A stretch of DNA of 64,000 nt from Phycisphaerae bacterium (GCA_963666835.2 CAXXGO010000006.1:2571743-2635742); one strand, 5' to 3'. Numbered from the stretch's first letter, positions 3,517 through 59,420 are shown. A program made the numbers and translations. Notes: a model not told the origin generated them from the sequence alone.

Positions 3517-3702
3517 GGCGCGACTGGAAGGGATCAGGGGCGGTCTTCTGAAGCCGCCCGCCCCGCCCATGATCGGGTGAGTTGTGAGTGAAGCTGCGCG
3601 CTGGTTGTGCCGATTGACGAGAGCCGGCGCCGGATCTATACTCCCGCGGTCGGCGCGCGCGTCGGGGTGCTTTGTAATGTTCGCTCTTGTAAGAGGTTAT
3701 GG

Positions 3703-11685: not shown

Positions 11686-13236
11686 ATGATGTCGAGAACG
11701 CTATTGCGGGCTGGGTTTGCCTGTCTGACGCTGAACTTCGTTTGCGCTTTCGGAGCCGAGTCTACGGATCCATCCGGGATTCGGCGGGAAACGTCAATTC
11801 GCGCCGGAGCGGCCGGGACGATCGTCGCCATCGAGGCTCGAACACCGCAAGCATCCGCGCTGGCGGCGACCGCGCTCGCAGAATACCCGCATCCGCGCCC
11901 GCGGCTGGCGGGGTTCTCGCCGTTGGTCGCCATCACTACCTCCGACGAGGGGGACCATTTGGGGGATGACTACGAGCATGAGCTGCAGCCGTCTTATGTG
12001 GGCAGTGCGCTCAATCCGGACGTGAGCCGTCATTTCGTCATCGGCTACCTGGATACCGGATCCGATGTGAATCTGGCAGCGGGCACCGCGGCGGACACGC
12101 TTGGGCTGTTTGGCACAAGACTCGGGCCCAATTCGATTCCTATCGGCGGCGTCGGTGGACAGATCGACGCTTACCTGACAATGCCGCTTGCGTTCTTCGC
12201 GGCAGGGCTCTCGGCGATCGACGGGAGCGGGGCGCTGGATTACGGCGCCTTGGTCGGACACTCGCACGTTTCCGGATTGGCGGCTCCGGCAATCGAGTGC
12301 GGCGGCGGCGAAGCGGTAACGGCGATTGTGGGAATGCCGTTTCTGGGCTTCTACAACTCGTTCATTCGGGTGGACACGCCGCGCGAGGCCACCGTGGAGG
12401 GCGTGACCTACAAGGGCCCGGACGTGCAGATTGAAACGCCGGATCCGTATAATCCGCTTCCCGCGTCCGCGCATATGATATCCATGGATTTCGGTGGGGG
12501 GGCCGGGTACGCGATGACTGCGAACTACTATCCCGATTTCTTTGACCTTGATGGCCCGCCTCTATATCCGACGTTGTTGTCTGCCATGGCGAGTTTTCTT
12601 CCCCTTGGCGGACAGCTCTTTGAGTCTATTTGGGTGCGGGAAGGCGAACCCACGCCGGACAACCCCTCTCAGGAGATCCGCGTGATGGTCGACACGGGTG
12701 CTCAGAGTTCGATTATCAGCACCGCGGTAGCCGCCAATCTCAGTCTGCCGTTCGAGCCGGATTTTACCGTGGACGTGTGTGGAGTAGGGGGGCTGATTGA
12801 GGACATCCCCGGGTATTACATCGACTACGTGAAGATCCCCGCGTTGGGTGGAGCGCTGGAATTCTCGCGGGCGCCGTTCGTGGTAATGGACCTGCCGTCG
12901 GCGGAAGGTGGGACCCTGGCCGGAATTCTCGGGATGAACTTCTTCTGGAACCGCAACGTTACCGTTGAGCCCAACCTGATGGGGACGTCCTATTTGCACG
13001 TGTCCGACCCGATCCCGTTTGCTTACGGGGATTTCGATGCCGACCTGGACGTCGATGATGATGACGCCTCGATGTTCTTCTATTGCATGCGTGGCCCGAA
13101 CGACCTGGCGATCGGGCCCAACTGCGATCATGTCGATTCCGACGAGGACGGAGACGTCGATCTGGAGGACTACGCCCGTTTCTGGACCTGCTACAGCGGC
13201 ATGAACTTGCCGGCTGACCCGACGTGCGGGGACTGA
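11686..13236 (+). CDS. secreted protein with two retropepsin-like aspartic-protease lobes and dockerin-like C-terminal tag
   Basis: Signal peptide MMSRTLLRAGFACLTLNFVCAFGA. Lobe 1 has FVIGYLDTGSDVNL (DTG at 12052-12060) and AIVGMPFLGFYNSFIRVD. Lobe 2 has IRVMVDTGAQSSII (DTG at 12691-12699) and LAGILGMNFFWNRNVTVE. The C-terminus is DFDADLDVDDDD...C...C...DSDEDGDVDLEDYARF. Confidence 0.55.
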   Translation: MMSRTLLRAGFACLTLNFVCAFGAESTDPSGIRRETSIRAGAAGTIVAIEARTPQASALAATALAEYPHPRPRLAGFSPLVAITTSDEGDHLGDDYEHELQPSYVGSALNPDVSRHFVIGYLDTGSDVNLAAGTAADTLGLFGTRLGPNSIPIGGVGGQIDAYLTMPLAFFAAGLSAIDGSGALDYGALVGHSHVSGLAAPAIECGGGEAVTAIVGMPFLGFYNSFIRVDTPREATVEGVTYKGPDVQIETPDPYNPLPASAHMISMDFGGGAGYAMTANYYPDFFDLDGPPLYPTLLSAMASFLPLGGQLFESIWVREGEPTPDNPSQEIRVMVDTGAQSSIISTAVAANLSLPFEPDFTVDVCGVGGLIEDIPGYYIDYVKIPALGGALEFSRAPFVVMDLPSAEGGTLAGILGMNFFWNRNVTVEPNLMGTSYLHVSDPIPFAYGDFDADLDVDDDDASMFFYCMRGPNDLAIGPNCDHVDSDEDGDVDLEDYARFWTCYSGMNLPADPTCGD

Positions 13237-13589
13237 TTCGACGCCTGTTGCCGGGGCAAGCTCTGTGTGCCTTCACCCTCGGCAGCCCGTCTCAGGACGC
13301 TGTGATTCCCGCCACGGTTAACGAGGGGCTGGAACTCGAACAGCATCCGCGGCAACAGGGTGTGCCGCTTCCCAACGCCCCAGAGTGATTCAAGGGTCGC
13401 TTGCCGATGCGCGGATGTCCCGGGCAAACAGGCAGTTTGCCCAAACGGGACAACGGCTCGCTACGCTGCCCGATTGGGTCTCGTAGGCACAAGGCCTGTG
13501 ACGGGGTGTTGTCCGCCTTTCCGATCACCCGGTCACTGCAATCGACATCCGCGCCTTATCGGTCTAACATCGTGCATGGGCGCGGGCTA

Positions 13590-16018: not shown

Positions 16019-16386
16019 GGCAGGTCTCGTTCCTCGACCGTGCCCTACAATGATCGCGACTCGCTCATCACGGCTGGGTGGCCCATGTTCTATTGAGTTT
16101 CTGGAATGACAATGTTGTGGCAGAACCTTGCAGAGTAGAGTTGTTTGAACATGGGGGAGCCGATGACAATACGCGCTCGCACTCGCCGGCAGGTCTCGTT
16201 CCTCGACCGTGCCCTACAATGATCGCGACTCGCTCATCACGGCTGGGTGGCCCATGTTCTACTGAGTTACTGGAATGACAATATTGTGTCAGAACCTTGC
16301 AGAGTAGAGTTGTTTGAACATGGGGGAGCCGATGACAATACGCGCTCGCACTCGCCGGCAGGTCTCGTTCCTCGACCGTGCCCTAC
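16019..16386. repeat. tandem array of family F2: 30-nt REP-like core plus two 169-bp units
   Basis: The core GGCAGGTCTCGTTCCTCGACCGTGCCCTAC lies at 16019-16048, 16188-16217 and 16357-16386, a period of 169 bp. The intervening 139 nt is itself repeated at about 95% identity. On the minus strand the core reads GTAG + hairpin (GGCACGGTC/GACC-TGCC). Confidence 0.9.
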
Positions 16387-16393
16387 AGCCTTA

Positions 16394-16927
16394 TCACGTT
16401 TCGTTTTTGCTCAGCCATTCCCGTGCCAACCGGCGTACCGTTCGTTCGAGTTCCTTGAATCCTCCGAACTCGCCGACCTTACCGTCGGCGAATTCCTCGG
16501 CAAGAACGTCGTCGAGATGGTCGTAGGTCCAGAAGCATGCGATGAAGTCCTGGAGTCCATGCACGTTATCACCGAGTTGTACCGGTTCATTGCGGACATA
16601 CACGGGGTAGTAGACGTCCTGCATGAAGTCGCTCAACCCGTCGCGCGGTTGGGTATCCCCGGCCACAATCCGGGCGAGGTGGTGTCGCGCGATAGTCCTG
16701 ACTGCTTGGTCTCTCGAAGGTACACCGGTGCCGAGTTCTGCAAGTGCGGTTTCGAACAATGGTCCGATCGTTGACAAGATCGGGTGCCTGGTTTCAGCCA
16801 GCTCCACCAGGGAAGGGGAGTATGAGCCGCTCAGCAGAGCTTGGTCAGCGGCAGCCCGGATGTCGTCACTCAGAGCGGTGCCGATCGAGTATCGCGCGGC
16901 CAACAGTTCCAGGGATGTCGGATCCAT
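16394..16927 (-). CDS. hypothetical cytoplasmic alpha-helical protein (177 aa) bracketed by F2 repeats
   Basis: The ATG at 16927 lies inside track ORF 16394..17176, whose first 83 codons run through the repeat. MDPTSLELLAARYSIGTALSDDIRAAADQALLSGSYSPSLVELAETRHP...; I recognise no family. Confidence 0.5.
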   Translation of the reverse strand: MDPTSLELLAARYSIGTALSDDIRAAADQALLSGSYSPSLVELAETRHPILSTIGPLFETALAELGTGVPSRDQAVRTIARHHLARIVAGDTQPRDGLSDFMQDVYYPVYVRNEPVQLGDNVHGLQDFIACFWTYDHLDDVLAEEFADGKVGEFGGFKELERTVRRLAREWLSKNET

Positions 16928-17042
16928 TTGGACGCATACCTCCGCAAACCAATCACTGCAGTCGAGTATAGCAGCTAACCCCTCGGTGCAGCAAGGCGCA
17001 CGGTCGGGGCGATGCAGGCCATTCGTGGCCACGCGCACTCGC

Positions 17043-17370
17043 TGGCAGGTCTCGTTCCTCGACCGTGCCCTACGAATCATCGGGGTGGCCCATGTTCTAC
17101 TGAGTTTCTGGAATGACAATATTGTGTCAGAACCTTGCAGGGTAGGGTTGCCTGAACATGGGGGAGCCGATGACAATACGCGCTCGTACTCGCCGGCAGG
17201 TCTCGTTCCTCGACCGTGCCCTACGGGATCAGGTGCATGGTGCCCCAGGGTGGCACTCCGCGGCTGCGCCGCTCCGTTTGACCCTGGGCTTTGTTGTTGA
17301 ACGTCTTCGACGTACGTTCAGCCTTCGCACCTCCTAACATGGCAGGTCTCGTTCCTCGACCATGCCCTAC
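17043..17370. repeat. F2 repeats: cores at 17043-17072, 17195-17224, 17341-17370 with one 152-bp long unit
   Basis: The 30-nt core is the same (the third copy has one mismatch). Segment 17073-17224 is a long unit with a 17-nt deletion relative to 16050-16217. Confidence 0.85.
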
Positions 17371-24121: not shown

Positions 24122-24447
24122 TGCGCGACGTTGGCCGGTTCAGGACGGACCCCTACGGGGCACTCCGAAAGCGGATGATCCAAGAAACCGAGGTCGCCCT
24201 GGCCGTGGGGCTTCTCCACCCGTCGCGCGTTCCGCGGATTCCCACGGTGGAGGTTGGTCACGGCACGTTCCATCCGGACTTCGCCGCAGAGTTCTGGCAA
24301 GAAGCGCTGGGGTTGGACAGCTCCGAGCAGCCGGAGTCCGCTGGCCGTAAAACGCCGGATCGACCGCGGAATCAGCGTTTCAGGATGAACGACCGCTTCG
24401 GTGGTCGCCCGCTGCCGGACTGATGCTGCTTCAATGAGGTGGCTGAA

Positions 24448-24968
24448 GGGGGTGCCCCACCGCGGTGCTTGTTGCGTTGGGAGGGCCGTACCGATTCGCC
24501 GCCGGGGTGGGTGGGGGACGGATGCATCGACATACGGGGTTTTCTGTCTACTGTGATGTCTTACAGGCCGAAGGACGGGGCACTATCGCTGCATAACGCA
24601 AAGACCATGGCAGGTCTCGTTCCTCGACCGTGCCCTACGGCCCGGGTGCCCCATTCACCCCGGCGTCTGTTGCATCAGGATAGCCGCAACGATTCGCCGC
24701 CGGGGTGGGTGGGGGACGGATGGAGGTTTGAGACACGCTGGCATTCGGAGATCAGTCCCCCACCCTTCGGCCAATGAACAGTGTGTATACCGGGAATGCA
24801 TCGATATACGGGGTTTTCGGTCTACTGTGATGTCGCACAGGCCGAAGGACGGGGCACTATCGCTGCATCACGCAAAGACCATGGCAGGTCTCGTTCCTCG
24901 ACCGTGCCCTACAGGCTGTGATGTCGCACAGGCCGAAGGACGGGGTACCCTCCGAGGGATGGGCACCC
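24448..24968. repeat. composite repeat region sharing the F2 core
   Basis: A 114-nt unit is duplicated at 24525-24638 and 24799-24912 and ends in the F2 core (24609-24638, 24883-24912). A 33-nt unit CGATTCGCCGCCGGGGTGGGTGGGGGACGGATG occurs at 24492-24524 and 24690-24722. A partial third copy lies at 24916-24944. GGGTGCCCCA seeds occur at about 24449 and about 24644. Confidence 0.85.
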
Positions 24969-48143: not shown

Positions 48144-48216
48144 TGGAGCCGAGCGGGCTCGAACCGCCGACCTCCTGGTTGCAAACCAGGCGCTCTCCCA
48201 GCTGAGCTACGGCCCC
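48144..48216 (-). tRNA. tRNA-Ala: tRNA-Ala (anticodon UGC)
   Basis: The minus strand reads GGGGCCGTAGCTCAGCTGGGAGAGCGCCTGGTTTGCAACCAGGAGGTCGGCGGTTCGAGCCCGCTCGGCTCCA. It folds as a cloverleaf with anticodon loop TTTGCAA, the G3:U70 Ala identity pair and a TTCGAGC T-loop. CCA is not encoded. Confidence 0.93.
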
Positions 48217-50174: not shown

Positions 50175-50225
50175 CCATCATTGCAGAACGCGCGGGTGCC
50201 CCATGTCCTTTCGTGTTTAGGATGT

Positions 50226-50360
50226 GTGGCCCATGTCCTCTTGTGTCTAGAGCGTGCTGCGATTCGTCGCAGATCGTGCAACGCCAAACACGTCGGACAT
50301 GGGGGAGCCGATGACGAGCACGCGACATTGCAGCAGATCTCGTTCGTCGACCTGCATTAC
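50226..50360. repeat. diverged copy of the F2 long unit
   Basis: GTGGCCCATGTCC...(56 nt)...GGACATGGGGGAGCCGATGAC...GATCTCGTTCGTCGACCTGCATTAC has the same architecture and the same 56-nt loop length as 16078-16217. The 9-bp stem is retained through a T:A to C:G double change. Confidence 0.6.
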
Positions 50361-50479
50361 ACGGTGGGAAGTGTCCACATGATGGCATGCTGCTTTGAAA
50401 GGCGATTGTGATTCGCCGGTCACCAGGGCGATTCGTCCCCCCTTGCTGGGGAGGTTAGGCACCTGCGGTCGAAAGGGCG

Positions 50480-50908
50480 TCAGAGTGTCAAGACCGTTAT
50501 CGCAGTGTGTCCGAGAATCAGGGCCCACAGGATCACCGTGAGACGCGCGCCAAACCGCTTCACTGATCGCTCGGCGCGTGCCTCAAGCGTACCTGCTGCT
50601 GCTGCCGCCAGAAGTAGCTGCAGCGGAAAGAGAAGAAACGGACCGGTCAGCCAGTTCACTTCTACACGATCGACGGTACCGCGAATCTCGTCAACAAAGA
50701 CGTACGCAATGAACCACGGGATCGTTGCCAAAAGGAGTATGCGGAAGAACCTCCGCAGAGGCCAACGCCGCCTGGCGTATACCGCTACCTCGCGCGAAGT
50801 AAACGCTTGTCCGCACTCCGGGCAGCGCGGTTCCACAAGTCCTCGTAAGTCGTAATCGCAGTTTGGGCAACGACCCTCAGTTTGCACGGCTGAGCAGACC
50901 TCTTTCAT
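50480..50908 (-). CDS. zinc-ribbon membrane protein (array gene 1)
   Basis: ATG at 50908: MKEVCSAVQTEGRCPNCDYDLRGLVEPRCPECGQAF, followed by 3 TM segments. Confidence 0.6.
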   Translation of the reverse strand: MKEVCSAVQTEGRCPNCDYDLRGLVEPRCPECGQAFTSREVAVYARRRWPLRRFFRILLLATIPWFIAYVFVDEIRGTVDRVEVNWLTGPFLLFPLQLLLAAAAAGTLEARAERSVKRFGARLTVILWALILGHTAITVLTL

Positions 50909-51152
50909 CAAGAAACCTCGATCTCCGTGGTCGTCGGCGCTTGTGTAGTTTACGCGTCAAGCATGGCCAGGCAACTGCGGACCATGCCACCAGTCAGGTT
51001 GCTCGTAAGATACGAAAGACCCCACCACATGATGCAATCATACTACCAGACAGTTCTGGACTCCACCATTCGCACGAGCGGAGCTCCATCCTTGCTACGA
51101 AGCACGTCGCACCAGTTCAACGGAGAAGTCTATCCTTGCCCGCGAGACTGTG
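50909..51152. repeat. degenerate copy of the array intergenic element
   Basis: It retains TTGTGTAGTTTACGCGTCAAGCA (compare TGTAGTTCTTTCG..GGTCAAGCA) and GCTCCATCCTTGCTACGAAG (compare CCCCACCCTTGCTACGCAA). It lacks the GC hairpin. Confidence 0.35.
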
Positions 51153-51707
51153 TCAACCGACTCGTAGCAGACAGGAGAGAACCAGGTAGGGCAGCAAGAC
51201 GCTGAGAGACGACACACAGAACAGCTTAATCAGGTAGGGACGCGTCGGCAATGACAGACGAACCAGAGAAACCGCGTACCAGGTCGACAGCGCAACGCAT
51301 GTCGCCGGTATGCTCAACACCGCAAGTAACGCCCACGTGTCCGGTGGATTTGCCGGAATGCCAATGCATGCGGTAGGAAAGACGAGCGGCCCCATCAGGG
51401 CAAACACGCCGATATCCGGATATAGAGCAAAACAGATCAACGTCGGTCCGCAAAAGGCGAGAGCGTTGAGGACGAGTTGCACGACAGTGACTCGCCAGCG
51501 GTGGTTTCGCCAGTAGGTCGCCCAGCGGGCCGCGGGCTCATTAGACTTCGCCACCGGCGTGCCACATTCCGGGCACAATCCGTATAGACCCAGCGTTCGG
51601 AGATTGTACCCGCATTCCATGCATTGCAGATCGCGAACAATGGTCCGCCGTTTCGGAGTCTCAGGCGCGACATCAGTATTGTCCTTATCCGGCAGCATCC
51701 TTCGCAT
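51153..51707 (-). CDS. zinc-ribbon membrane protein (array gene 2)
   Basis: ATG at 51707: ...RDLQCMECGYNLRTLGLYGLCPECGTPVAKSNE, followed by 4 TM segments. Confidence 0.6.
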   Translation of the reverse strand: MRRMLPDKDNTDVAPETPKRRTIVRDLQCMECGYNLRTLGLYGLCPECGTPVAKSNEPAARWATYWRNHRWRVTVVQLVLNALAFCGPTLICFALYPDIGVFALMGPLVFPTACIGIPANPPDTWALLAVLSIPATCVALSTWYAVSLVRLSLPTRPYLIKLFCVSSLSVLLPYLVLSCLLRVG

Positions 51708-51736
51708 TTCTCCAAGGCGGTCCGAAAGGCAAGCAC

Positions 51737-51888
51737 GGGCGCCCCATCTCTTCAGGGCAGCGGGTGCCCCATCCTTCGCCCCCGGCGAAGGGTGGGGAAT
51801 GGACCCGCGTTCTCTTCTGACAAGCTCCTGCAGCCGCCCAGTGTAGTTCTTTCGGACGGGTGGCCCATCTCTTTAGAGGTGGGGAACT
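51737..51888. repeat. array intergenic element, short copy (E2)
   Basis: A half copy GGGCGCCCCATCTC lies at 51737. The full hairpin CCCCATCCTTCGCC-CCCG-GCGAAGGGTGGGG is at 51767-51797. AGTGTAGTTCTTTCG is present, and the right end AGGTGGGGAACTCTC is at about 51877-51891. Confidence 0.7.
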
Positions 51889-51910
51889 CTCACGGTCGGT
51901 GGCAGTGCAT

Positions 51911-52324
51911 CTACGTCTTCTCTCGATTGCCCAACAGTACCGGATCGAACGGCGTGCCACACTCGGGGCATCGAGGGGTAGGAAGCCCGCAAAGCGAGTA
52001 GCCACAAACCAGACAGGTAGGGCTCTCGCTCTCCTCACGATGCGAGCTTGGCACGGTGCCAACGAGCACCGCGCACACCGCGAGACACAGCACAAGCGCG
52101 GGCACCGTGAAGCCCAGTGACTGCACCAGCAGGTCCTCCCAATTGGACGGAAACTCGTACGCGAGCTGCCCCACCCGACGTTCCCGGGTCCCGACCACGA
52201 TCGCGCCCGGCGCGCCGACCACAACTACTGATAACACGAGGAGCACCTTATGTCGAACCCGTCGAAGGAGGAAGCACAGATTCAACACGAGCAAGGCCGA
52301 GGCAATAGCGAAACACCAGATCAT
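51911..52324 (-). CDS. membrane protein with C-terminal zinc ribbon (array gene 3, permuted paralog)
   Basis: ATG at 52324; the longer track ORF up to 52657 reads through the hairpin and the intron. MIWCFAIASALLVLNLCFLL... has 3 TM segments and ends CLVCGYSLCGLPTPRCPECGTPFDP. Confidence 0.5.
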   Translation of the reverse strand: MIWCFAIASALLVLNLCFLLRRVRHKVLLVLSVVVVGAPGAIVVGTRERRVGQLAYEFPSNWEDLLVQSLGFTVPALVLCLAVCAVLVGTVPSSHREESESPTCLVCGYSLCGLPTPRCPECGTPFDPVLLGNREKT

Positions 52325-52349
52325 CGCGTTGACGTCCCCACTCCGGCAC

Positions 52350-52387
52350 GGGCGCCCCATCCTTCGCCCCCGGCGAAGGGTGGGGGG
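52350..52387. repeat. array intergenic element E3, left part (hairpin), separated from its right part by the intron
   Basis: GGGCGCCCCATCCTTCGCCCCCGGCGAAGGGTGGGG, with the hairpin at 52355-52385. It matches the left ends of E2, E4 and E6. Confidence 0.75.
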
Positions 52388-52750
52388 AAAGCGCCGGTAA
52401 GCCGGTGAGGAGTAGTGGATGAGAGAGCCATACGGTGAAGGAATAGCGAACCACACCGACCCCGAGTCATACTGTGGTGTCCGCAAGGGCATGGCGGGAG
52501 CGTTGACAGGGGCACGTGCGGGCCGGCCATTGAGCCGTGAAAGCCTTTTACTCCGGAGTGCCGACGCCGTCCCCCAAGGCGGAAGGCAACACCGGAGGGC
52601 GTCGTTAACGCGAGACGCCTTTCGGACTCCGCGCGGTCTTAGAACCCGAGCACGCACGGAAACTCCTCACGCGGAACCCGGGAGATCCCGCGTTCGGCCT
52701 CGAACATGGCATCGAGGTCCGCAGTGTGAATCCATAGGAGCACGACACTG

Positions 52751-54256
52751 ATGCACGGGCGCGGGAAGTCGGACAGGCCCATAGTACCGAAGAAGACTGC
52801 GAACAACGGTGATCCCCCGGCGGGGAGGTCGTCCGCGGAGCAGTTGGAGGAAAGGGGCCTGGCCAAGGGCAACTCGATTCGACACGACAGGCACCGTACG
52901 CAGAGCCGGGATCGTCTGCAAAGCGGGTTGGATCGGGTACGACAGGCAGCGGTAAAGGATAAGGATTTACAGTTCACCACGCTTTGGCACCATGTCTATG
53001 ATGTCGCTCGCCTCCGGGAGGCGTACTTGAGCCTCAAGCATGCTTCGGCACCGGGGATGGACGGCATGACATGGGAGGCGTACGGCAGGGACCTAGAAGA
53101 ACACCTCTTGGATCTGTCGGCACGTCTACAGCGCGGAGCGTACCGAGCGAGGCCGGTCAAGCGGGTCTACATTCCGAAACCCGATGGACGGCAGAGACCA
53201 ATAGGGATTCCCGTGTTGGAAGACAAGATCGTCCAACGGGCGATGACCGATGTGCTCTCGGCTGTCTACGAGGCAGACTTCCTCGGGTTCTCCTACGGAT
53301 TTCGACCAGGACGGGACGCCCATCAGGCGTTAAGTGCCCTGACTGTCGGCATCGAGAGGAAGAAGGTGAATTGGGTGCTGGATGCAGACATTCGTGGATT
53401 CTTCGATGCCATAGACCACGATTGGCTGATCAAGTTCGTCGAGCACCGGATCGCAGACCAGCGTGTCGTGCGTCACGTGAAGAAGTGGCTGAACGCCGGC
53501 GTGCTGGAGGACGGGTGTCGAAGGGACACGGAGACGGGGACGCCGCAGGGGGGCAGTATCAGCCCGCTATTGGCGAACATCTATCTCCATTACGCCTTCG
53601 ACTTGTGGGCCCGCCAATGGCGACGGACGCAAGCTCACGGAGATGTGATTATCGTGAGATATGCGGACGACTTCGTGGTGGGATTTCAACAGCGAGAGGA
53701 TGCCGAGCGGTTTCGGGATGAGCTGACGGATCGCCTCCGGAAGTTCAAGCTGGAGCTACATGCGGACAAGACTCGTCTGATTGAGTTCGGCCGTTTTGCG
53801 TCGACCAATCGCAAGCGAGAAGGCCGCGGCAAACCGGCGACCTTCGAGTTTCTGGGTTTTCGCCACATCTGTGGCAAGACCCGGCGTGGGAGGTTCACGG
53901 TACTACGGCAGACTGTCGCGAAACGACGGCGTGCGAAGCTCAAAGCGATTAAGCAAGAGCTTCGGCGACGTATGCATGCCCCCGTCCGAGAGGTGGGCGC
54001 GTATTTGCGGGCGGTGGTTCGCGGGTACTATCAGTATTATGCGGTACCGCGGAACTACCCGGCCTTAACGGCATTTCGGGATGAGGTTGTCCGTCTTTGG
54101 CGCTGGACGCTCCGGCGTCGTAGCGAGAAGACTCGGATTACCTGGGCCCGCATGAACCGTTTGGCCAAGCAGTGGATACCTGCTCCCAAAATCCTACATC
54201 CTTACCCCGACCGACACCTGGCCGTTATGACCCAAGGCAGGAGCCCAGTGCGGTAG
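52751..54256 (+). CDS. group II intron reverse transcriptase/maturase (no endonuclease domain)
   Basis: RVYIPKPDGRQRPIGIPVLEDKIVQRAMTDVLSAVYEADFLGFSYGFRPGRDAHQAL, GTPQGGSISPLLANIYL, VRYADDFVVGF, FEFLGFRH, and maturase X-domain-like YLRAVVRGYYQYYAVPRN. The N-terminus is of the KSDRPIVPKKTANN type. There is no HNH/CxxC tail. Confidence 0.95.
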   Translation: MHGRGKSDRPIVPKKTANNGDPPAGRSSAEQLEERGLAKGNSIRHDRHRTQSRDRLQSGLDRVRQAAVKDKDLQFTTLWHHVYDVARLREAYLSLKHASAPGMDGMTWEAYGRDLEEHLLDLSARLQRGAYRARPVKRVYIPKPDGRQRPIGIPVLEDKIVQRAMTDVLSAVYEADFLGFSYGFRPGRDAHQALSALTVGIERKKVNWVLDADIRGFFDAIDHDWLIKFVEHRIADQRVVRHVKKWLNAGVLEDGCRRDTETGTPQGGSISPLLANIYLHYAFDLWARQWRRTQAHGDVIIVRYADDFVVGFQQREDAERFRDELTDRLRKFKLELHADKTRLIEFGRFASTNRKREGRGKPATFEFLGFRHICGKTRRGRFTVLRQTVAKRRRAKLKAIKQELRRRMHAPVREVGAYLRAVVRGYYQYYAVPRNYPALTAFRDEVVRLWRWTLRRRSEKTRITWARMNRLAKQWIPAPKILHPYPDRHLAVMTQGRSPVR

Positions 54257-54313
54257 TCCCGCACGCTGGGATCTGTGGAGGGGGTCCCGGGTAACCGGGA
54301 TTCCTACTCCGAC
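54241..54313 (+). ncRNA. group II intron domains V and VI
   Basis: DV is at 54241-54273: GAGCCCAGU-GCGG-loop-CCGC-AC-GCUGGGAUC, with an AGC triad and a 2-nt AC bulge as in the ai5gamma DV. DV overlaps the ORF stop codon (54254-54256). DVI is at 54277-54310 with a GUAA tetraloop and a bulged A at 54306, 7-9 nt before the inferred 3' end (..CUCCGAC). Confidence 0.7.
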
Positions 54314-54488
54314 ACTGATCCGCATTCGTTTCTGACAACCTCCTGCAGCTACCGAGTGTAGTTATTCCGCCCCGGTTTGGTCAAGCAGGTCTCCGCACGC
54401 GCGATGAACCGGTGTAGATGGGGGCCTGATTCGCCGGTAAGCGAAGCGATCCGTCTCCCACGCTCGGTGCGCGAAGAAGTGAGGCACG
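54314..54488. repeat. array intergenic element E3, right part
   Basis: ..TGATCCGCATTCGTTTCTGACAACCTCCTGCAG..GAGTGTAGTTATTCCGCCCCGGTTTGGTCAAGCAGGTCTCCGCA..GGTGTAGATGGGGGCC..GCGATCCGTCTCCCACGC..GTGAGGCACGC aligns to E2, E4 and E6. It abuts the stop codon at 54489. Confidence 0.75.
54355..54384 (-). promoter_or_regulatory. putative sigma70-like promoter inside E3 (TTGACC-N18-TACACT, minus strand)
   Basis: The minus strand reads TTGACC (54384-54379), then 18 nt, then TACACT (54360-54355). The same arrangement is conserved in E4 and E6. Confidence 0.3.
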
Positions 54489-55013
54489 CTACCAAGACAA
54501 CCTGAAGACGAACGGGCGGAACGCCAACGATTCGAAGAATGACCACACGGCCAGAAGAAACACGATCCTGATCCGCCATCGCCAATCACTGCGCATTGAC
54601 TCATAGCTAGCGAAAGTCAGTATTGCCAATGCTACGCAGATGCCAAGGCAGAGATTGCCGAAGCTGGTTGCCCCCAATCCTGGGCGCACATCGAGCACGC
54701 TGAGGAACAGCCAAACGGGGGCGAGAAGCACATCACGTGCGTGAATACGAAAACCACTGAGACCCACGAGAAGCAGTAGGGCGGGCAGGTAGAACGCGGA
54801 GGCATTGATCGGCACAATGAACAGGAGGCTCCGCCATCGCGGAGAGGCTGCCTCCGGCTCAGACGTAGAGTCGACGACGTCCGTGCCGCATTCCGGACAA
54901 CGTCCCGTCAATCGAAGTGTGCGTAGATTGTACCCACAACCAACACACGAGACATCATCGTCAACGCATTCTCTTTTTCGTTCGCCCGTATCGCCCACCG
55001 CAGAAAACCCCAC
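54489..55013 (-). CDS. zinc-ribbon membrane protein (array gene 4)
   Basis: The start is GTG at 55013 or 54998; the track ORF up to 55172 reads through the repeat. ...DDDVSCVGCGYNLRTLRLTGRCPECGTDVVDSTSE is followed by 4 TM segments. Confidence 0.55.
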   Translation of the reverse strand: MGFSAVGDTGERKRECVDDDVSCVGCGYNLRTLRLTGRCPECGTDVVDSTSEPEAASPRWRSLLFIVPINASAFYLPALLLLVGLSGFRIHARDVLLAPVWLFLSVLDVRPGLGATSFGNLCLGICVALAILTFASYESMRSDWRWRIRIVFLLAVWSFFESLAFRPFVFRLSW

Positions 55014-55017
55014 CAGC

Positions 55018-55225
55018 GGGTGCCCCGTCCTTCGCCCCCGGCGAAGGGTGGGGGATGGCCCCGCGCTGACTTCTCGACAAGCCTTCGCTGTCGCCTGTTG
55101 TAGTTCTTTCGCTCCGGTTTGGTCAAGCACGTCTCCGCATACGGGATGAACCGCTTGGGAAGGGGACTGCATTCTGCCCGAGGCGATCCGCCACCCCCCC
55201 CTTGCTGCGCAAGCATGGGGCGCCC
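55018..55225. repeat. array intergenic element, reference copy E4 (208 bp, inverted-repeat ends)
   Basis: The left end is GGGTGCCCCGTCCTTCGCC (hairpin 55023-55054). The reverse complement of the right end is GGGCGCCCCATGCTTGCGC (13/19 match). Internally it has TGTAGTTCTTTCGCTCCGGTTTGGTCAAGCACGTCTCCGCA and a second hairpin, CCCCCTTGC-TGC-GCAAG-CAT-GGGG. Confidence 0.8.
55097..55126 (-). promoter_or_regulatory. putative sigma70-like promoter inside E4 (TTGACC-N18-TACAAC, minus strand)
   Basis: The minus strand reads TTGACC (55126-55121), then 18 nt, then TACAAC (55102-55097). It lies about 45 nt upstream of the GC hairpin and about 85 nt upstream of the GTG at 55013. Confidence 0.3.
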
Positions 55226-55304
55226 ACGCGAATAGGCTCGGAGTTGGCTCCCTGCATCAACGGACTGCCAGGCGGTTCCGGGATTATCTGCCATCGTGGT
55301 GCAA

Positions 55305-55859
55305 TCAGGTAGACGGCGGAAACTCAAGTGGACAATGAGGCGGTTGTCCATCCACCGGAACATGCTTCTCCCAGGCCCCGTTGTCTTCTTCCTCCCAGTA
55401 GACGGCGCCGATGTCTGCACTCAGAAGCCACAGCCTACTATCAGTGTCCCAGTCGACGTTCCACGAGGATGTTCCGGCAGCTACCGACTCCACGTCCAAG
55501 ACAACGGCACCTGTTTCGGCGCGACAGATCAAGAACCCGACCGGTCCCGTATCATCGTGCCTTGTTGAGCCTGTCCAGACAAAATGACGGCCGTTGGGCG
55601 CCAAGGGGACTTTCCGCGGTGATCTCCAACCGGCATCTGTGACGCCTCTATCCACTTTCTCAAGACGCGCCTGCGCGAGCTTATACAAAGCGCGGTTCCT
55701 GCTGCGCTGCCTCTCCGTACACGAATACACCTGTATGCCGATCACGGCCAGGCCGATGATGTACGCGACACCTGAGACGATAGACCGCATGATCCCAGAA
55801 CCCCCTGTGTCTTCATGGTCGGTACGTCTCCACATGCCGGCGGCTGACGGGCTACTCAT
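55305..55859 (-). CDS. membrane-anchored hypothetical protein (array gene 5)
   Basis: Candidate ATG starts are at 55859, 55835 and 55790. The anchor is MRSIVSGVAYIIGLAVIGIQVY, followed by a soluble domain (...GRHFVWTGSTRHDDTGPVGFLICRAETGAVVLDVE...). I recognise no family. Confidence 0.45.
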   Translation of the reverse strand: MSSPSAAGMWRRTDHEDTGGSGIMRSIVSGVAYIIGLAVIGIQVYSCTERQRSRNRALYKLAQARLEKVDRGVTDAGWRSPRKVPLAPNGRHFVWTGSTRHDDTGPVGFLICRAETGAVVLDVESVAAGTSSWNVDWDTDSRLWLLSADIGAVYWEEEDNGAWEKHVPVDGQPPHCPLEFPPST

Positions 55860-55989
55860 CGAATCGAGTTCATCACTCGCACGGTCCTTCCGGGCTGGCG
55901 TTCCATCCGCCGCCCGCAGCGGAGAATGACGGACCCGGAGCCGAACACACGGTCCGAGTTCGCAATGAGCTTCGTCGACACGCCTTGTG

Positions 55990-56144
55990 GGCCGACGCAT
56001 ACTGTTGTACAGTTTCCTGCCGTCTTCGGCTGCACTTCCTTCACCCTGGTTTCGTCAAGTAAGTTCCCGAGAGCAGGATAAGCCGGTGTGGATGGTGGCC
56101 GGGTTTCGCCGGCTACCGTGTCGATCCGTCCCCCACCCTTGCTA
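55990..56144. repeat. array intergenic element, partial copy E5 (lacks GC hairpin)
   Basis: CTGTTGTACAGTTTCC..CTGGTTTCGTCAAGTAAGTTCCCGAGAGCAGGATAAGCCGGTGTGGATGGTGGCC..GGCTACCGTGTCGATCCGTCCCCCACCCTTGCTA aligns to the right two-thirds of E6. It overlaps the stop codon at 56142. Confidence 0.6.
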
Positions 56145-56783
56145 TAGCGAGATTCCCAAGTGCTCGCGCGATGGCGTGTCGTGCTCTTTGTGGTAACGGA
56201 TCAGTGAGGGATCGCTCTCGGCAGCTTCAGCGTATTCAGCCGGGCGAACTTTCTTGCTGCGGATATAGTACTCCGGGTATCCCGGTCGTAATCTACCGTC
56301 CTCTTGCCATTCTCGAACAACACCGTGGAGTCGTCCGCGCTGCCAGAATCGCTCGGTATAGACCTGCATTCCGTCCTCATTCCACCAGAGTTTGCACCCG
56401 TGATGGAGTCCATCGACAATATGCCTTTCCTCTGCGATTTTACCGTTCTCGTGCCACCAAATGTCCAGGCCAGTACCATTCGACATTTCGTACGTGCCGA
56501 GCAATGCGCCGTCGATACCGAACTGCCTCGCAACGCCGTGCTCCTTGCCGGTTTCGAAATGCGTCTTAAACCTGAGAATACCATTGGAGAACCAACGTCG
56601 CAGTGATCCCTGGCGGATTCCGCCGGACATCATCACCTCTTCAATGACTGCGCCCGTCTCGTCCCTGATCCGCCTCGCGATTTCCTCACCTGCGACAAAG
56701 CACGCATGCACGGTGTCGCCGTACTCATCGAGAGTGAGCAGACGCTCGTCAACACCCTCAGGTATGTCGCTCGGGTAAGCCAT
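56142..56783 (-). CDS. MORN-repeat-variant / YwqK-like protein (array gene 6)
   Basis: ATG at 56783 (the track start at 56813 is TTG). It has repeated G-x-x-x-W-x-x-N-G / HG units: GSLRRWFSNGILRFKTHFETGKEHG, GLDIWWHENGKIAEERHIVDGLHHG, KLWWNEDGMQVYTERFWQRGRLHG and VVREWQEDGRL. Confidence 0.65.
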   Translation of the reverse strand: MAYPSDIPEGVDERLLTLDEYGDTVHACFVAGEEIARRIRDETGAVIEEVMMSGGIRQGSLRRWFSNGILRFKTHFETGKEHGVARQFGIDGALLGTYEMSNGTGLDIWWHENGKIAEERHIVDGLHHGCKLWWNEDGMQVYTERFWQRGRLHGVVREWQEDGRLRPGYPEYYIRSKKVRPAEYAEAAESDPSLIRYHKEHDTPSREHLGISL

Positions 56784-56818
56784 TCTTTGCCGCGATTCTC
56801 CGACGTTGGCCAAGCTGC

Positions 56819-57184
56819 GGGTGCCCCGTCCTTCGCCCCTGGCGAAGGGTGGGGAATGGATCCGGAACCTGCTTCAGTCAGCGAATGCCAAACGTGGTCC
56901 GCCCGTACGTTGAGCAATGCGACGTTCACAGCGTGCCGATCTTGTACTGTTCCTGGTTGTAGTTGCTTCGGCCGGGTTTGGTCAAGTGAGTTTCCGCAAG
57001 CGGGATCAACCGGTGTAGATGGTGGCTGAAGTCCGCCCGTTACCGTGTCGATCCGTCCCCCACCCATTCCGGCGGGGAGTCGGCATGGCTACGGCAGCTC
57101 GGCAAACGCCGGAATGAATGGGGTACCCGCCTGGTTACCGTGTCGATCCGTCCCCCACCCTTGCTACGCAAAAGTGGGGCACCC
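56819..57184. repeat. array intergenic element, long copy E6 (366 bp, internal duplication)
   Basis: The left end is GGGTGCCCCGTCC (hairpin 56824-56854) and the right end is GTGGGGCACCC (57174-57184), with a perfect 9-nt inverted terminus. GTTACCGTGTCGATCCGTCCCCCACCC is duplicated at 57039 and 57134. The terminal hairpin is CCCCACCCTTGC-TAC-GCAAAAGTGGGG. Confidence 0.8.
56956..56985 (-). promoter_or_regulatory. putative sigma70-like promoter inside E6 (TTGACC-N18-TACAAC, minus strand)
   Basis: The minus strand reads TTGACC (56985-56980), then 18 nt, then TACAAC (56961-56956). Confidence 0.3.
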
Positions 57185-57212
57185 TCCTGTGGGTTGCCGA
57201 ATTGGTTACCGC

Positions 57213-59420
57213 CTACTTCGACTCGCCGAACTTGATCGTCGTTCCCTCCGTGGCCGAGCGGACGGCCGCGAAGCTGGCTTCGGTGACCATTTCCAACTCC
57301 GCAAACGGGATGGGCGGGGCGCCGCCTTCGGTAACGCGTTTGATGAACGTGGCCACCTCGGCCTTGTGCCCCTTCTCCTGGCGGATCTTCATCTTAGGAG
57401 CGCCGGGCCAGCCGAAGGACTCCAACTGCCGCCAATTGTCGATTACCAAAACGCGCCCCTCGCTGAAGATCTCCACGCGTTCCTTGGGATACGACTTCGG
57501 TCCGTTGGCCAGGTAATGCACGGTTCCGATGGAGCCGTCGGCGAACGTCATGTTGATCGTCATCTTGTCGTCGCGAATGCCGCCGGTTTCCGGCCCGAAC
57601 ATCACGGCGCTGGTTGACGAAATCGGGTGGCCTACCAGAAAGAGAATAAGGTCGATGAAGTGGCAGCCCTCGCCGATGATCCGGCCGCCACCGACTGCCG
57701 GATCGTGATGCCAGGAGTCCGGCGGGATGTCCCCGGCGTTGACCATCATGGTAATCGCCACCGGCTCGGCGCGGCCGGCAAGTAGCTGTTTCGCCTTGAC
57801 CGCGTGAGGAGCGAACCGCCGATTGAATCCCACCATTACAAGCTGGTCCGGATGGCGCGCGTGAGCTTCACGCACCAGCTCCAATCCTGCATGGTCGATG
57901 GCCAGTGGCTTCTCGATGAACACGTGTTTGCCGGCGTCGAGGGCTTCGGCGGCCATCGTGGCGTGCGTGTGGTGCGTCGTACTGACAAAGACCGTGCCGA
58001 CATCCGGCGACTCGATAACCGCGCGGTAGTCCGTGGCCGTCTCCGCAGCTTCGAACTTCTGCCCGGCGTGCGCGGCAGACACGCCGCCGGCACTGGCGAT
58101 CGCGTGGATGGGAATCCCGGTCTCTTTGATGGCCGGAAGAAGGACCAGCTTAGTGAAGTTGCCGGCGCCGATGACGCCGACTCCTGCGCGGCTTGGCCTG
58201 GCTGAGACGGTTGGCGCTTTCGGCCTGCGGATCACCCGGTTGGTTGGCGGGGGTTGATCCGGATAGGTCAGCACCACACCCAGCGCGCTGTTGTCATTCA
58301 GGATTATGTCGTAGGCGTCTTCGGGGCGAGCTTGTTCAATGCGTTTCGAGATCAGCGACTCGGCATCCAGTCTCTTCTGGGCTATCGCATCGAGAATCGC
58401 CTCGAAGTTCCGTGCCACCGTCCAACGAACATAGGGCAACGGGTAGTCCTGTACCCTCTGCTCGTAGGCGCTGTCGTAGCGACCCGGTCCGTACGAACAA
58501 GACACCTGGAACGACAGCTCCTTCTCATAGAAATCAGCTCGACGCAGGTTGAGGCCTATGACCCCGACGAGGACTATCCGGCCGCGCTTGCGGCACATCT
58601 CCGTGGCCTGATGAATGATCTCATCGCTTTTGGAGGAGGCCGTGATAATGACCCCGTCGACCCCGCGACCCTGGCTGAATGCCGTGGCCGCGACGACCGG
58701 GTTGGTTCCCTCGGAGACAGTCAGCGTGCGACATCCGAACTTCTCGGCGAGCTTGCACCGTTCACCGTTGACGTCGATCCCCAAGACGTTGGCACCATTA
58801 GCGCGGAGAAGCTGGGCGGCAATCAGACCCAGGAGCCCCAGCCCCACTACGACGAAATCTTCCCCTAAGGTCGGCTCCGCGAGACGGACCCCGTGCAGGG
58901 CAATCGCTCCGAGAACCGTCAGGCTGGCCTCGTCGTCCGATACTCCGTCCGGGATTCGCGCGGCCAGGGTCGCGGGCACGTGGACCATTTCCGCATGTGC
59001 GCCGTTCGAGGCCACGCGGTCCCCGATGGAGAAGCCCTGCACTCCGGCCCCGACTTCGACAACCCGTCCGACATTGCAGTAGCCCAGCGGGAGCGGCTCG
59101 TCGAGCCGGCTGAAGACCACCTCCAGCGTCGGCAGCAGACCGTCGGTCTTAACCTTCTGAAGCACCTGGCGGACTTTGTCGGGCTGGGCTCGAGCCTTGC
59201 CGATCAACCCGGCCTGGCTGAACTCGACTAAGGAGCGCTCGGTCCCGGCGGAGATCAGACTGCGTGTCGTCTGAATCAGCAGGTGCCCGGGCGACACTTT
59301 GGGACAAGGGACGTCCGCCAGCTCGATCTGCCCACTCCGAAGATGCTGCAAAACCTGTTTCACCAGCCGTTCTCCCAACAGTTGCCCGAGGTTCGGACGC
59401 TTCGTACACGTATGCGACAT
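57213..59420 (-). CDS. bi-domain oxidoreductase (N-terminal zinc-type alcohol dehydrogenase/MDR + C-terminal Gfo/Idh/MocA)
   Basis: ATG at 59420. The MDR part has PLGYCNVGRVVEVG...VVVGLGLLGLIAAQLL. The Gfo/Idh/MocA part has GVGVIGAGNFTKLVLLPAI...VFVSTTHHTHATMAAEALDAGKHVFIEKPLA. Confidence 0.85.
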   Translation of the reverse strand: MSHTCTKRPNLGQLLGERLVKQVLQHLRSGQIELADVPCPKVSPGHLLIQTTRSLISAGTERSLVEFSQAGLIGKARAQPDKVRQVLQKVKTDGLLPTLEVVFSRLDEPLPLGYCNVGRVVEVGAGVQGFSIGDRVASNGAHAEMVHVPATLAARIPDGVSDDEASLTVLGAIALHGVRLAEPTLGEDFVVVGLGLLGLIAAQLLRANGANVLGIDVNGERCKLAEKFGCRTLTVSEGTNPVVAATAFSQGRGVDGVIITASSKSDEIIHQATEMCRKRGRIVLVGVIGLNLRRADFYEKELSFQVSCSYGPGRYDSAYEQRVQDYPLPYVRWTVARNFEAILDAIAQKRLDAESLISKRIEQARPEDAYDIILNDNSALGVVLTYPDQPPPTNRVIRRPKAPTVSARPSRAGVGVIGAGNFTKLVLLPAIKETGIPIHAIASAGGVSAAHAGQKFEAAETATDYRAVIESPDVGTVFVSTTHHTHATMAAEALDAGKHVFIEKPLAIDHAGLELVREAHARHPDQLVMVGFNRRFAPHAVKAKQLLAGRAEPVAITMMVNAGDIPPDSWHHDPAVGGGRIIGEGCHFIDLILFLVGHPISSTSAVMFGPETGGIRDDKMTINMTFADGSIGTVHYLANGPKSYPKERVEIFSEGRVLVIDNWRQLESFGWPGAPKMKIRQEKGHKAEVATFIKRVTEGGAPPIPFAELEMVTEASFAAVRSATEGTTIKFGESK

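Follow-up and report, generated by a model that had tools for sequence, protein, structure and literature searches.

We analyzed a stretch of 64,000 nucleotides from a Phycisphaerae bacterium (GCA_963666835.2 CAXXGO010000006.1:2571743-2635742), referred to below as the window, in which six small minus-strand open reading frames (ORFs) lie at 50.2-57.2 kb downstream of a 735-aa oxidoreductase gene, as delimited by ORF calling and Pfam. From the oxidoreductase onwards these genes encode a MORN_2-repeat protein, the orphan protein u5, and the Zn-ribbon proteins z4, z3, z2, and z1, and the gaps, numbered E6 to E0 in the same direction, mostly hold copies of one hairpin-bounded element. These elements are probably members of a dispersed palindromic family resembling the repetitive extragenic palindromes (REPs), their inverted doublets (REPINs), and the bacterial interspersed mosaic elements (BIMEs). 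In the reading that we favor, doublets of this family, in a long variant with a promoter-like insert, colonized an old array of small, fast-evolving genes. Head or tail motifs of the family are present in 6/7 array gaps (50175-57212), as opposed to 1/28 of the other gaps in the window (Fisher p = 3e-5), and the window has four copies of the hairpin core CCTTCGCCNNNGGCGAAGG, at 51773, 52361, 55029, and 56830, always on the plus strand, against 0.06 expected by chance.

The building block, or unit, is a hairpin with an invariant foot, consisting of a 5' GGGTG head, an 8-bp clamp (CCCCATCC/GGGTGGGG) in which one T·G wobble is always kept, and a GA(CGGA) tail at the 3' end; the inner stem is free to vary. 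A comparison of 19 units equal in length shows no variation in the 13-nt head (GGGTG plus CCCCATCC) or the 10-nt tail (GGGTGGGG plus GA), and double compensatory changes at 14/22 pairs, AT-rich interiors included. Folded with RNA parameters, the short units have stems of 13-14 bp (-25 to -29 kcal/mol), whereas DNA parameters leave the hairpin 1 stem open at its G·T-containing base, so that only the inner 8 bp pair. A full gap combines two inverted hairpin units with a promoter-like module. On the gene strand, the complete gaps E4 and E6 read stop codon, one or two forward units (GGGYRCCCCA-stem-loop-stem-GGGTGGGGGACGGATCG), module, and reverse unit (CCCCACCCTTCGCC-NNN-GGCGAAGGAYGGGGCACCC), with the start codon 5-55 nt beyond. 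E3 has the same layout, but with 1.9 kb intervening. Units, which in the window are intergenic, lie on the plus strand of the array at 51762-51799, 52350-52387, 55018-55055, and 56819-56856, and on the minus strand at 55194-55225, 57056-57128, and 57151-57184. Repeat finding in the window recovered three families, namely the hairpin-1 family (four copies, 61 nt, 69-90% identical), a central family (93 nt, with copies at 54346, 55088, 56020, and 56947 that are 62-72% identical), and the CGATCCGTCCCCCACCCTTGC family. The individual elements are as follows:

57151-57184, minus strand: E6, short forward unit GGGTGCCCCACTTTTGC-GTA-GCAAGGGTGGGGGA, 28 nt past the oxidoreductase stop codon (DNA fold -11.5 kcal/mol, z = -3.8)
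57056-57128, minus strand: E6, second forward unit with a long loop, GGGTACCCCATTCATTCCGGCG...CGCCGGAATGGGTGGGGGA, of a type common elsewhere in the genome
56917-57068, minus strand: E6, central module (nhmmer E = 2e-41), with TTGACC-N18-TACAAC at 56958-56985
56819-56856, plus strand: E6, hairpin-1 unit (reverse on the gene strand), 36 nt upstream of the MORN start codon
55990-56141, minus strand: E5, 3' half of a forward unit (56121-56141) and central module with TTGACG-N18-TGCAGC; reverse unit decayed
55194-55225, minus strand: E4, forward unit GGGCGCCCCATGCTTGC-GCA-GCAAGGGGGGGG
55058-55203, minus strand: E4, central module, with TTGACC-N18-TACAAC at 55099-55126
55018-55055, plus strand: E4, hairpin-1 unit, 5 nt upstream of the z4 GTG start codon; a junction partner in the sister strain
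54314-54488, minus strand: E3, right part, a decayed forward unit abutting the z4 stop codon and a module with TTGACC-N18-TACACT (54357-54384)
52387-54313, plus strand: group II intron, 1927 nt, inserted at GGGTGGGGG^AC 3' of the E3 hairpin-1 unit
52350-52386, plus strand: E3, hairpin-1 unit, 26 nt upstream of the z3 start codon; the other junction partner
51737-51886, plus strand: E2, half-unit (from 51737), hairpin-1 unit (51762-51799), -10 half of the module (51802-51867), and unit variant (51858-51886); no TTGACC
50909-51152, minus strand: E1, no intact unit; 3' remnant of a 172-aa gene and 5' end of a truncated 155-aa gene
50194-50479, no strand assigned: E0, diverged copy of a second repeat family (GGGTGCCCCATGTCC...GGACATGGGGGAGCC), decayed GTAG-tagged REP, and remnant of a unit tail
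24450-24518 and 24644-24716, plus strand: two forward units of the main family outside the array

The original prediction, made from the sequence alone, had placed the same discrete, structured, inverted-repeat-bounded element in the array gaps and had held it to be no canonical attC site. Both points are borne out: the ends read GGGYGCCCC.../...GGGGCRCCC, and the lack of GTTRRRY or RYYYAAC at either end rules out attC identity. Its finer details fared less evenly. A 13-bp stem had been proposed, and a 14-bp stem does form with RNA parameters, but it needs G·T/G·U wobbles and shrinks to the inner pairs with DNA parameters. The supposedly conserved TTGACC-N18-TACA motif is found in E3, E4, and E6, but E2 lacks the -35 half and E5 has only the deviating form listed above. 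E1 had been called degenerate, and indeed has no intact unit, but part of it is what remains of a gene still intact in a sister strain; E5 is partial as described, with half-units only. E1, E2, and E5 are all decayed. E2 had been listed at 51737-51888; its right end is a unit variant oriented like hairpin 1 and not an inverse terminus. Finally, the reported split of E3 (52350-52387 and 54314-54488) is real, but the 1.9-kb interruption, which had been left unnamed, is the group II intron.

Units of this kind are widely dispersed. The short hairpin with its flanks has one match each in six metagenome-assembled genomes (MAGs) from Phycisphaerae, Planctomycetota, and one Krumholzibacteriia bin, and in four of the six it forms the left half of a ~100-nt gene-less doublet whose right half is cccccacccttgcNNNgcaagaatggggcaccc. 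The asymmetric pair seen in these four doublets, with a TTCGCC-type left and a TTGC-type right hairpin, also bounds E4 and E6. A long-loop form, GGGTGCCCCATCC-N25-55-GGGTGGGGGA, is found in more than 115 stretches, reaches tens of copies in some Phycisphaerae MAGs, and has matches in Acidobacteriota too (Terriglobia, Terracidiphilus, Bryocella, and Acidiferrales). The 1.26 Mb of unit-bearing loci yielded 167 distinct units, a count that hinges on the regular expressions used; each of them folds into a hairpin. The forward strand folds better in 161/167, an asymmetry that we excluded as independent evidence, since the conserved T·G built into the search pattern accounts for most of it. Doublets in these loci are tail-to-tail in 24 cases and head-to-head in none, their spacers measure 30-49 nt in 21/24, and a flanking direct repeat, that is, a target-site duplication, is missing in 20/23. 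It is this combination of dispersal, tail-to-tail doublets, lack of duplication, and covarying stems that points to behavior of the REP/REPIN/BIME type. In Acidobacteriota MAGs (L045, L058, L061, L071, L090, L091, and L094) the same invariant foot is found mostly in single units, not doublets.

The group II intron provides another view of the units. Rfam places its domains I-IV at 52422-52646 (RF02005, 169 bits; the match is to model D1D4-6) and domains V-VI in a match to RF00029 (36.9 bits) that ends at 54313. The intron ORF (52751-54256) encodes a reverse transcriptase (RT)/maturase (TIGR04416, 370 bits) with no endonuclease domain, the best solved-structure relatives of which are IIC-type RTs, and an identical RT is present on at least nine contigs of the ENA assemblies ERZ21869600 and ERZ21869602. 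All eight copies examined, in the window and seven other loci, are inserted at GGGTGGGGG^AC(G/T)GAT, immediately past the 3' arm of a forward unit, each on the same strand as the stem-loop and at a fixed distance 3' of it. In addition, locus L026, which corresponds to window 20.9-26.6 kb at 99.97% identity, has the intron at a site that is empty in the window (GGGTGGGGG|ACGGATGC at 24517/24518). As all copies have the same flank and the empty site has a filled counterpart, the repeat unit is the specific homing site of this intron, of whose many copies that in E3 is one. The intron ends are GAAAGCG...CTCCGAC, with the boundaries set by comparison of filled and empty sites; the 3' end coincides with the Rfam D5-D6 match. 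Judged by these features, the intron appears to be IIC-like. Class C introns insert 3' of a stem-loop on the same strand (PMC1702495), and the present intron does likewise and shares with them an RT/maturase devoid of an endonuclease domain, but its target is a REP-like repeat with the flank GGGTGGGGG^ACGGAT instead of a T-tract terminator, and its 5' end is GAAAGCG instead of the usual GUGYG. At ~3640-3650 in locus L028 (ERZ21869602 ctg63628l), two introns stand head-to-tail with zero exon bases between them (CTCCGAC|GAAAGCG), possibly by mis-homing to the intron's own domain VI hairpin, by circle-junction integration, or as an assembly artefact.

The placement of the units could also be explained if the hairpin were primarily a host-selected signal rather than selfish or mobile DNA, for instance a factor-dependent terminator/insulator or an mRNA stability element, which a conserved cellular protein would recognize in RNA or single-stranded DNA and of which the array would have one at every gene boundary. 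Such selection would account for the invariance across two phyla of head, clamp, and tail, including a wobble confined to one strand, together with covariation in the remaining stem, as well as for forward units directly following stop codons on the gene strand and for the fact that, in the other loci, a co-oriented gene precedes 5/7 of the units that bear the intron. However, the units occur mostly as fixed-spacer inverted doublets and in tandem clusters, and their copy number varies between near-identical strains, all of which are features of proliferating repeats, whereas a unit in only one of the 28 ordinary gaps shows that it is no general gene-end signal. Neither a T-tract nor an Rfam family was found for the units, the latter in both gathering-threshold and E-value scans, and we consider selection as a host signal unlikely, although it would accord with much of the data. 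An intrinsic terminator, which would be a GC-rich stem-loop with a T-run, was likewise rejected: the units have no T-tract and are missed by a terminator scan.

Between their two units, the array doublets contain an insert of 140-200 nt with TTGACC-N18-TACAAC directed at the downstream gene. On the minus strand, TTGACC-N18-TACA is found at 54357-54384, 55099-55126, and 56958-56985 and at no other place in the 64 kb. A profile of the module, which spans ~150 nt and contains CTTGACC-N18-TACAAC, identifies, in the window and ~86 kb of sister-strain DNA, no copies other than those of the array. One further copy was found outside the species, in the unrelated MAG L040 (E = 4e-10); flanked by a forward and a reverse unit, it is directed at a convergent gene's 3' end. 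In five copies including that of L040, CTTGAC and AACT[AG]CA are conserved and the spacing between them is free of indels, and scans of genome and metagenome contigs with TTGACCAAACCNNNNCGNANNAACTACA gave chance matches within coding regions only (L023 and L024). The simplest reading of the module is that of a promoter, although in a σ70 consensus scan only TTGACC-N18-TACACT passes (9/12), the TACAAC copies failing the rule that requires T at position 6. Because the L040 copy also sits between two units, the module is part of the repeat rather than of the genes. The idea of a portable terminator-promoter-leader module, raised in the original prediction, would fit a promoter-like module that has fixed spacing and travels with hairpins in L040 as in the array.

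A sister strain, L032 (contig_46 of ERZ21869600, metagenome-assembled), was compared with the window. L032 matches window positions 64000-55017 at 99.6% and then continues directly with 52386-51071 at 99.85%, so that window 52387-55016, comprising the intron, the right part of E3, z4, and the E4 hairpin, is missing from it. At the junction stands a chimeric hairpin, E4-left joined to E3-right across a 26-nt identical core, and homologous recombination or slippage over this direct repeat explains the deletion as well as a recombinase would. At its distal end, L032 has an intact 172-aa gene, a 155-aa membrane/Zn-ribbon gene, and then a canonical doublet at the position of E0; the window has remnants of these two genes in E1, followed by z1 and a different repeat. 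One of the distal breakpoints falls at 8 nt of microhomology, CTCGTGCG, a sequence that has nothing to do with the hairpins. The array appears variable partly via the repeats and partly via ordinary illegitimate recombination. Repeat copy number and intron occupancy also differ between the strains outside the array, at 24.4-24.9 kb, which makes the repeats general hot spots of variation in this species. At window 24440-24950, a tandem ~275-nt repeat (unit, spacer, and GTAG-REP) is present twice; it is present once in the sister strain (L026 3583-5700), which has a 54-nt duplication in the unit loop and the intron instead of the second repeat.

More distant relatives bear on the age of the array. 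In L011 and L012, which are related at the family level (oxidoreductase 66-67% identical), one to three small membrane/Zn-ribbon genes directly follow the orthologous oxidoreductase, and the head and tail motifs are absent after the oxidoreductase in both. Since small genes occupy this position without the motifs, a small-gene array there is older than the repeats. That the elements are younger than the genes is also suggested by their 62-90% nucleotide identity, the proteins being unrelated or alike in the ribbon only.

The resemblance to REPs, REPINs with their REP-associated tyrosine transposases (RAYTs), and BIMEs extends to several properties, including short imperfect extragenic palindromes with a conserved unpaired foot in many copies, fixed inverted doublets that lack a target duplication, mosaic clusters in which they stand in tandem with further motifs, copy numbers that vary from strain to strain, and proposed roles at mRNA 3' ends. 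A number of observations nevertheless weigh against the assignment. REPs fall into GTAG- and CGTC-tagged superfamilies (PMC3733652), whereas the head is GGGTG in all units and, with the invariant 8-bp clamp, forms an unusual foot; inner stems are hypervariable, far more so than in classical REPs; and the foot is common to Planctomycetota and Acidobacteriota, a cross-phylum occurrence that also departs from the type. Neither the window nor L032 yielded a RAYT or any other transposase, and the 1.26 Mb of unit-bearing loci gave none in a search with a HuH...Y motif regular expression and all-against-all clustering of their 3335 ORFs; the recurrent clusters among these ORFs are the intron RT and ordinary enzymes. 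The long variant with its 140-200-nt insert is confined to the array within ~150 kb of this species, and five or six gaps in a row carry it, which would be unusual under random transposition and demands a local process, for which unequal exchange or gene conversion may be responsible. The -10 hexamers are weak (TACAAC and TGCAGC), the hairpins lack a T-tract and escape the terminator scan, their tails reading GGGGGACGGATCG, and the L032 assembly may have collapsed across repeats. A literature search by sequence string returned irrelevant matches only. As to the enzyme, class 3 HuH-Y1 proteins are reported to occur mainly in Planctomycetes and Acidobacteria and to be flanked by high-copy atypical secondary structures (PMC6006769); this taxonomic match makes them a lead, and a lead only, to a possible partner of the units.

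The original prediction had likened the array to gene cassettes separated by structured recombination sites. In its present form, this explanation holds that an orphan gene plus a promoter-bearing doublet is mobile as a non-integron cassette, moved by a single-strand-specific enzyme encoded elsewhere (HuH-Y1, perhaps of class 3, or a tyrosine recombinase) that acts at the folded hairpin, a counterpart of attC x attC recombination in integrons with no sequence relationship to it. The genes are indeed co-oriented, small, unrelated, and orphan, with atypical GC content at third codon positions (GC3), and a cassette system would explain the element in six consecutive gaps. The presence/absence comparison between relatives, proposed as a check, also yielded what cassettes would predict, as L032 lacks one gene and one element with the junction inside the hairpin, and its distal genes differ too. 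To this can be added the confinement of the promoter-bearing variant to the array in the sequence examined and the intron at the hairpin, as described for IIC introns at attC sites (PMC7923331). Yet the same hairpins are dispersed across Planctomycetota and Acidobacteriota, usually as gene-less doublets of 100-150 nt, and also at 24.45-24.72 kb of the window; there are two inverted hairpins per gap instead of one site per cassette; and several elements are decayed. The sole deletion spans a perfect direct repeat long enough for recombination or slippage, and the second indel lies at the 8-nt microhomology, not at a hairpin. As the original prediction had stated, there is no recombinase among the window ORFs scanned. 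Past the tRNA at window 48144-48216, L032 has tyrosine recombinase, terminase, and portal genes (L032 16429-20642) that the window does not have, but this enzyme is unlikely to be the array recombinase, given its phage context at a tRNA and its generic tyrosine-recombinase scores; on the integron-integrase model TIGR02249 it reaches 24.6 bits against a cutoff of 265.

Integron cassettes, including clusters of attC sites lacking integron integrases (CALINs), have in common with the array co-oriented, small, unrelated, and often orphan genes between imperfect palindromes and an occasional stem-loop-seeking group II intron. Their strain-level gain and loss of a gene plus its site may have a counterpart in the one event seen in L032, which homologous recombination explains equally well. 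They differ in that the elements here have no R''/L''/L'/R' organization or R'/R'' boxes with a GTTRRRY core, no IntI is encoded among the window ORFs, and each gap appears to carry its own promoter, cassettes being usually promoterless. Overall, nothing shows a dedicated gene-cassette system, and the data come closer to the scenario of dispersed repeat invasion that the original prediction itself had named as refuting it. We regard a cassette system as improbable; it stays alive because five or six consecutive gaps carry the long variant.

The genes of the array are the following:

57213-59420, minus strand: oxidoreductase, 735 aa, fusion of ADH_zinc_N and GFO_IDH_MocA, head of the array (ORF, Pfam)
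56142-56783, minus strand: gene for the 213-aa MORN_2-repeat protein, with its stop codon within a half-unit; identical protein in the sister strain
55305-55859, minus strand: u5, 184-aa orphan with an N-terminal hydrophobic segment (ORF, Pfam, protein clusters)
54489-55013, minus strand: z4, 174-aa Zn-ribbon (CxxCGYNL...CPECG) membrane protein, orphan; absent from the sister strain
51911-52324, minus strand: z3, 137-aa membrane protein with a Zn ribbon at the C-terminus
51153-51707, minus strand: z2, 184-aa Zn-ribbon membrane protein
50480-50908, minus strand: z1, 142-aa Zn-ribbon membrane protein; position occupied by other genes in the sister strain

The relatives of the oxidoreductase in Phycisphaerae/Planctomycetota MAGs are 59-69% identical. 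For z4 and u5, a search of 5.8 billion protein clusters gave no relatives outside their own clusters. The GC3 of the array ORFs is 0.61-0.65, compared to 0.70-0.78 in neighboring genes, and the ORFs may be recently acquired, recently born, or partly non-functional. In L011 (9772 and 12913-13374) and L012 (9772 and 12143-13529), membrane proteins with CxxCGYxL...CPECG flank the orthologous oxidoreductase on both sides, which hints at a functional link between the fused dehydrogenase and the ribbon proteins.

The gene products also speak to the possibility that the array arose by tandem duplication of a gene with its upstream region, the gaps then being paralogous promoters and leaders. Four of the six genes do encode the CxxCGYxL...CPECG ribbon, with z2 and z4 sharing 46% identity over 74 aa, and such gene arrays follow the same oxidoreductase in L011 and L012. 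However, z1-z4 have only this ~25-aa ribbon in common (45-60% identity over 22-74 aa), and the MORN_2 protein and u5 are related neither to z1-z4 nor to each other, yet the elements at these unrelated genes are the best preserved (E5 and E6 are 79% identical across 111 nt). The intergenic gaps are far more similar to one another than the array proteins are, units and module occur in other genomes away from such genes, and L011 and L012 have no elements. With unrelated proteins and similar gaps, co-duplication of gene and promoter is largely refuted, and we hold tandem duplication to be very improbable.

If the elements are REPIN-like doublets, as we favor, the order of parts in a gap suggests how they would act. 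The forward hairpin would serve as a 3'-end barrier or stabilizer for the upstream transcript, the module would supply promoters to poorly conserved orphan genes, and the reverse hairpin would sit in the 5' leader of the downstream gene. The repeats serve as the homing site of the IIC-like intron, and the loss and exchange of single genes seen in the sister strain would result from their acting as substrates for recombination or slippage. By analogy, the most likely agent for the spread of the unit would be a single-strand HuH-Y1 enzyme of the RAYT type that recognizes hairpin and foot.

Among other known elements, the neisserial Correia elements are promoter-carrying miniature inverted-repeat transposable elements (MITEs), intergenic repeats bounded by terminal inverted repeats (TIRs) that supply promoters, terminator-like hairpins, and RNA-processing sites. 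They have TA target duplications and are near-identical within one genome, whereas the doublets here have no duplication, two autonomous hairpin units, and variable interiors. A MITE derived from a DDE transposon was rejected in general, as TIR-like ends are present but the target-site duplication is absent.

Two other repeat families are found in the window. A canonical GTAG-tagged REP, GTAGGGCACGGTCGAGGAACGAGACCTGC, has eight near-identical copies on the minus strand (16020, 16189, 16358, 17045, 17196, 17342, 24610, and 24884), each adjoining another repeat type, a setting suggestive of BIME-like mosaics and of a class 2 RAYT encoded in this genome. A second family of ~125 nt, GGGTGGCCCATGTTC...GAACATGGGGGAGCCGATGAC, is present at 16076-16200, 16245-16370, and 17083-17210, with a diverged copy at 50194-50312; it has the GGGTG head and the CCCAT/ATGGG clamp logic of the main family and flanks an ORF at 16394-16930.

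The repeats described here form a REP-like family, invariant in the foot and free in the interior, that occurs in two phyla and fits neither the GTAG nor the CGTC superfamily, and they offer a concrete DNA partner for studying the poorly understood class 3 HuH-Y1 proteins of both phyla. They also provide a clean case of intron homing, in which a repeat is the exclusive homing site of an intron lineage, with filled and empty sites in near-identical strains. In the orphan-gene array, the doublets would mediate gain and loss of single genes. Dispersed repeats could in this way wire and reshuffle young or foreign genes without integron machinery, and the array makes this idea testable.

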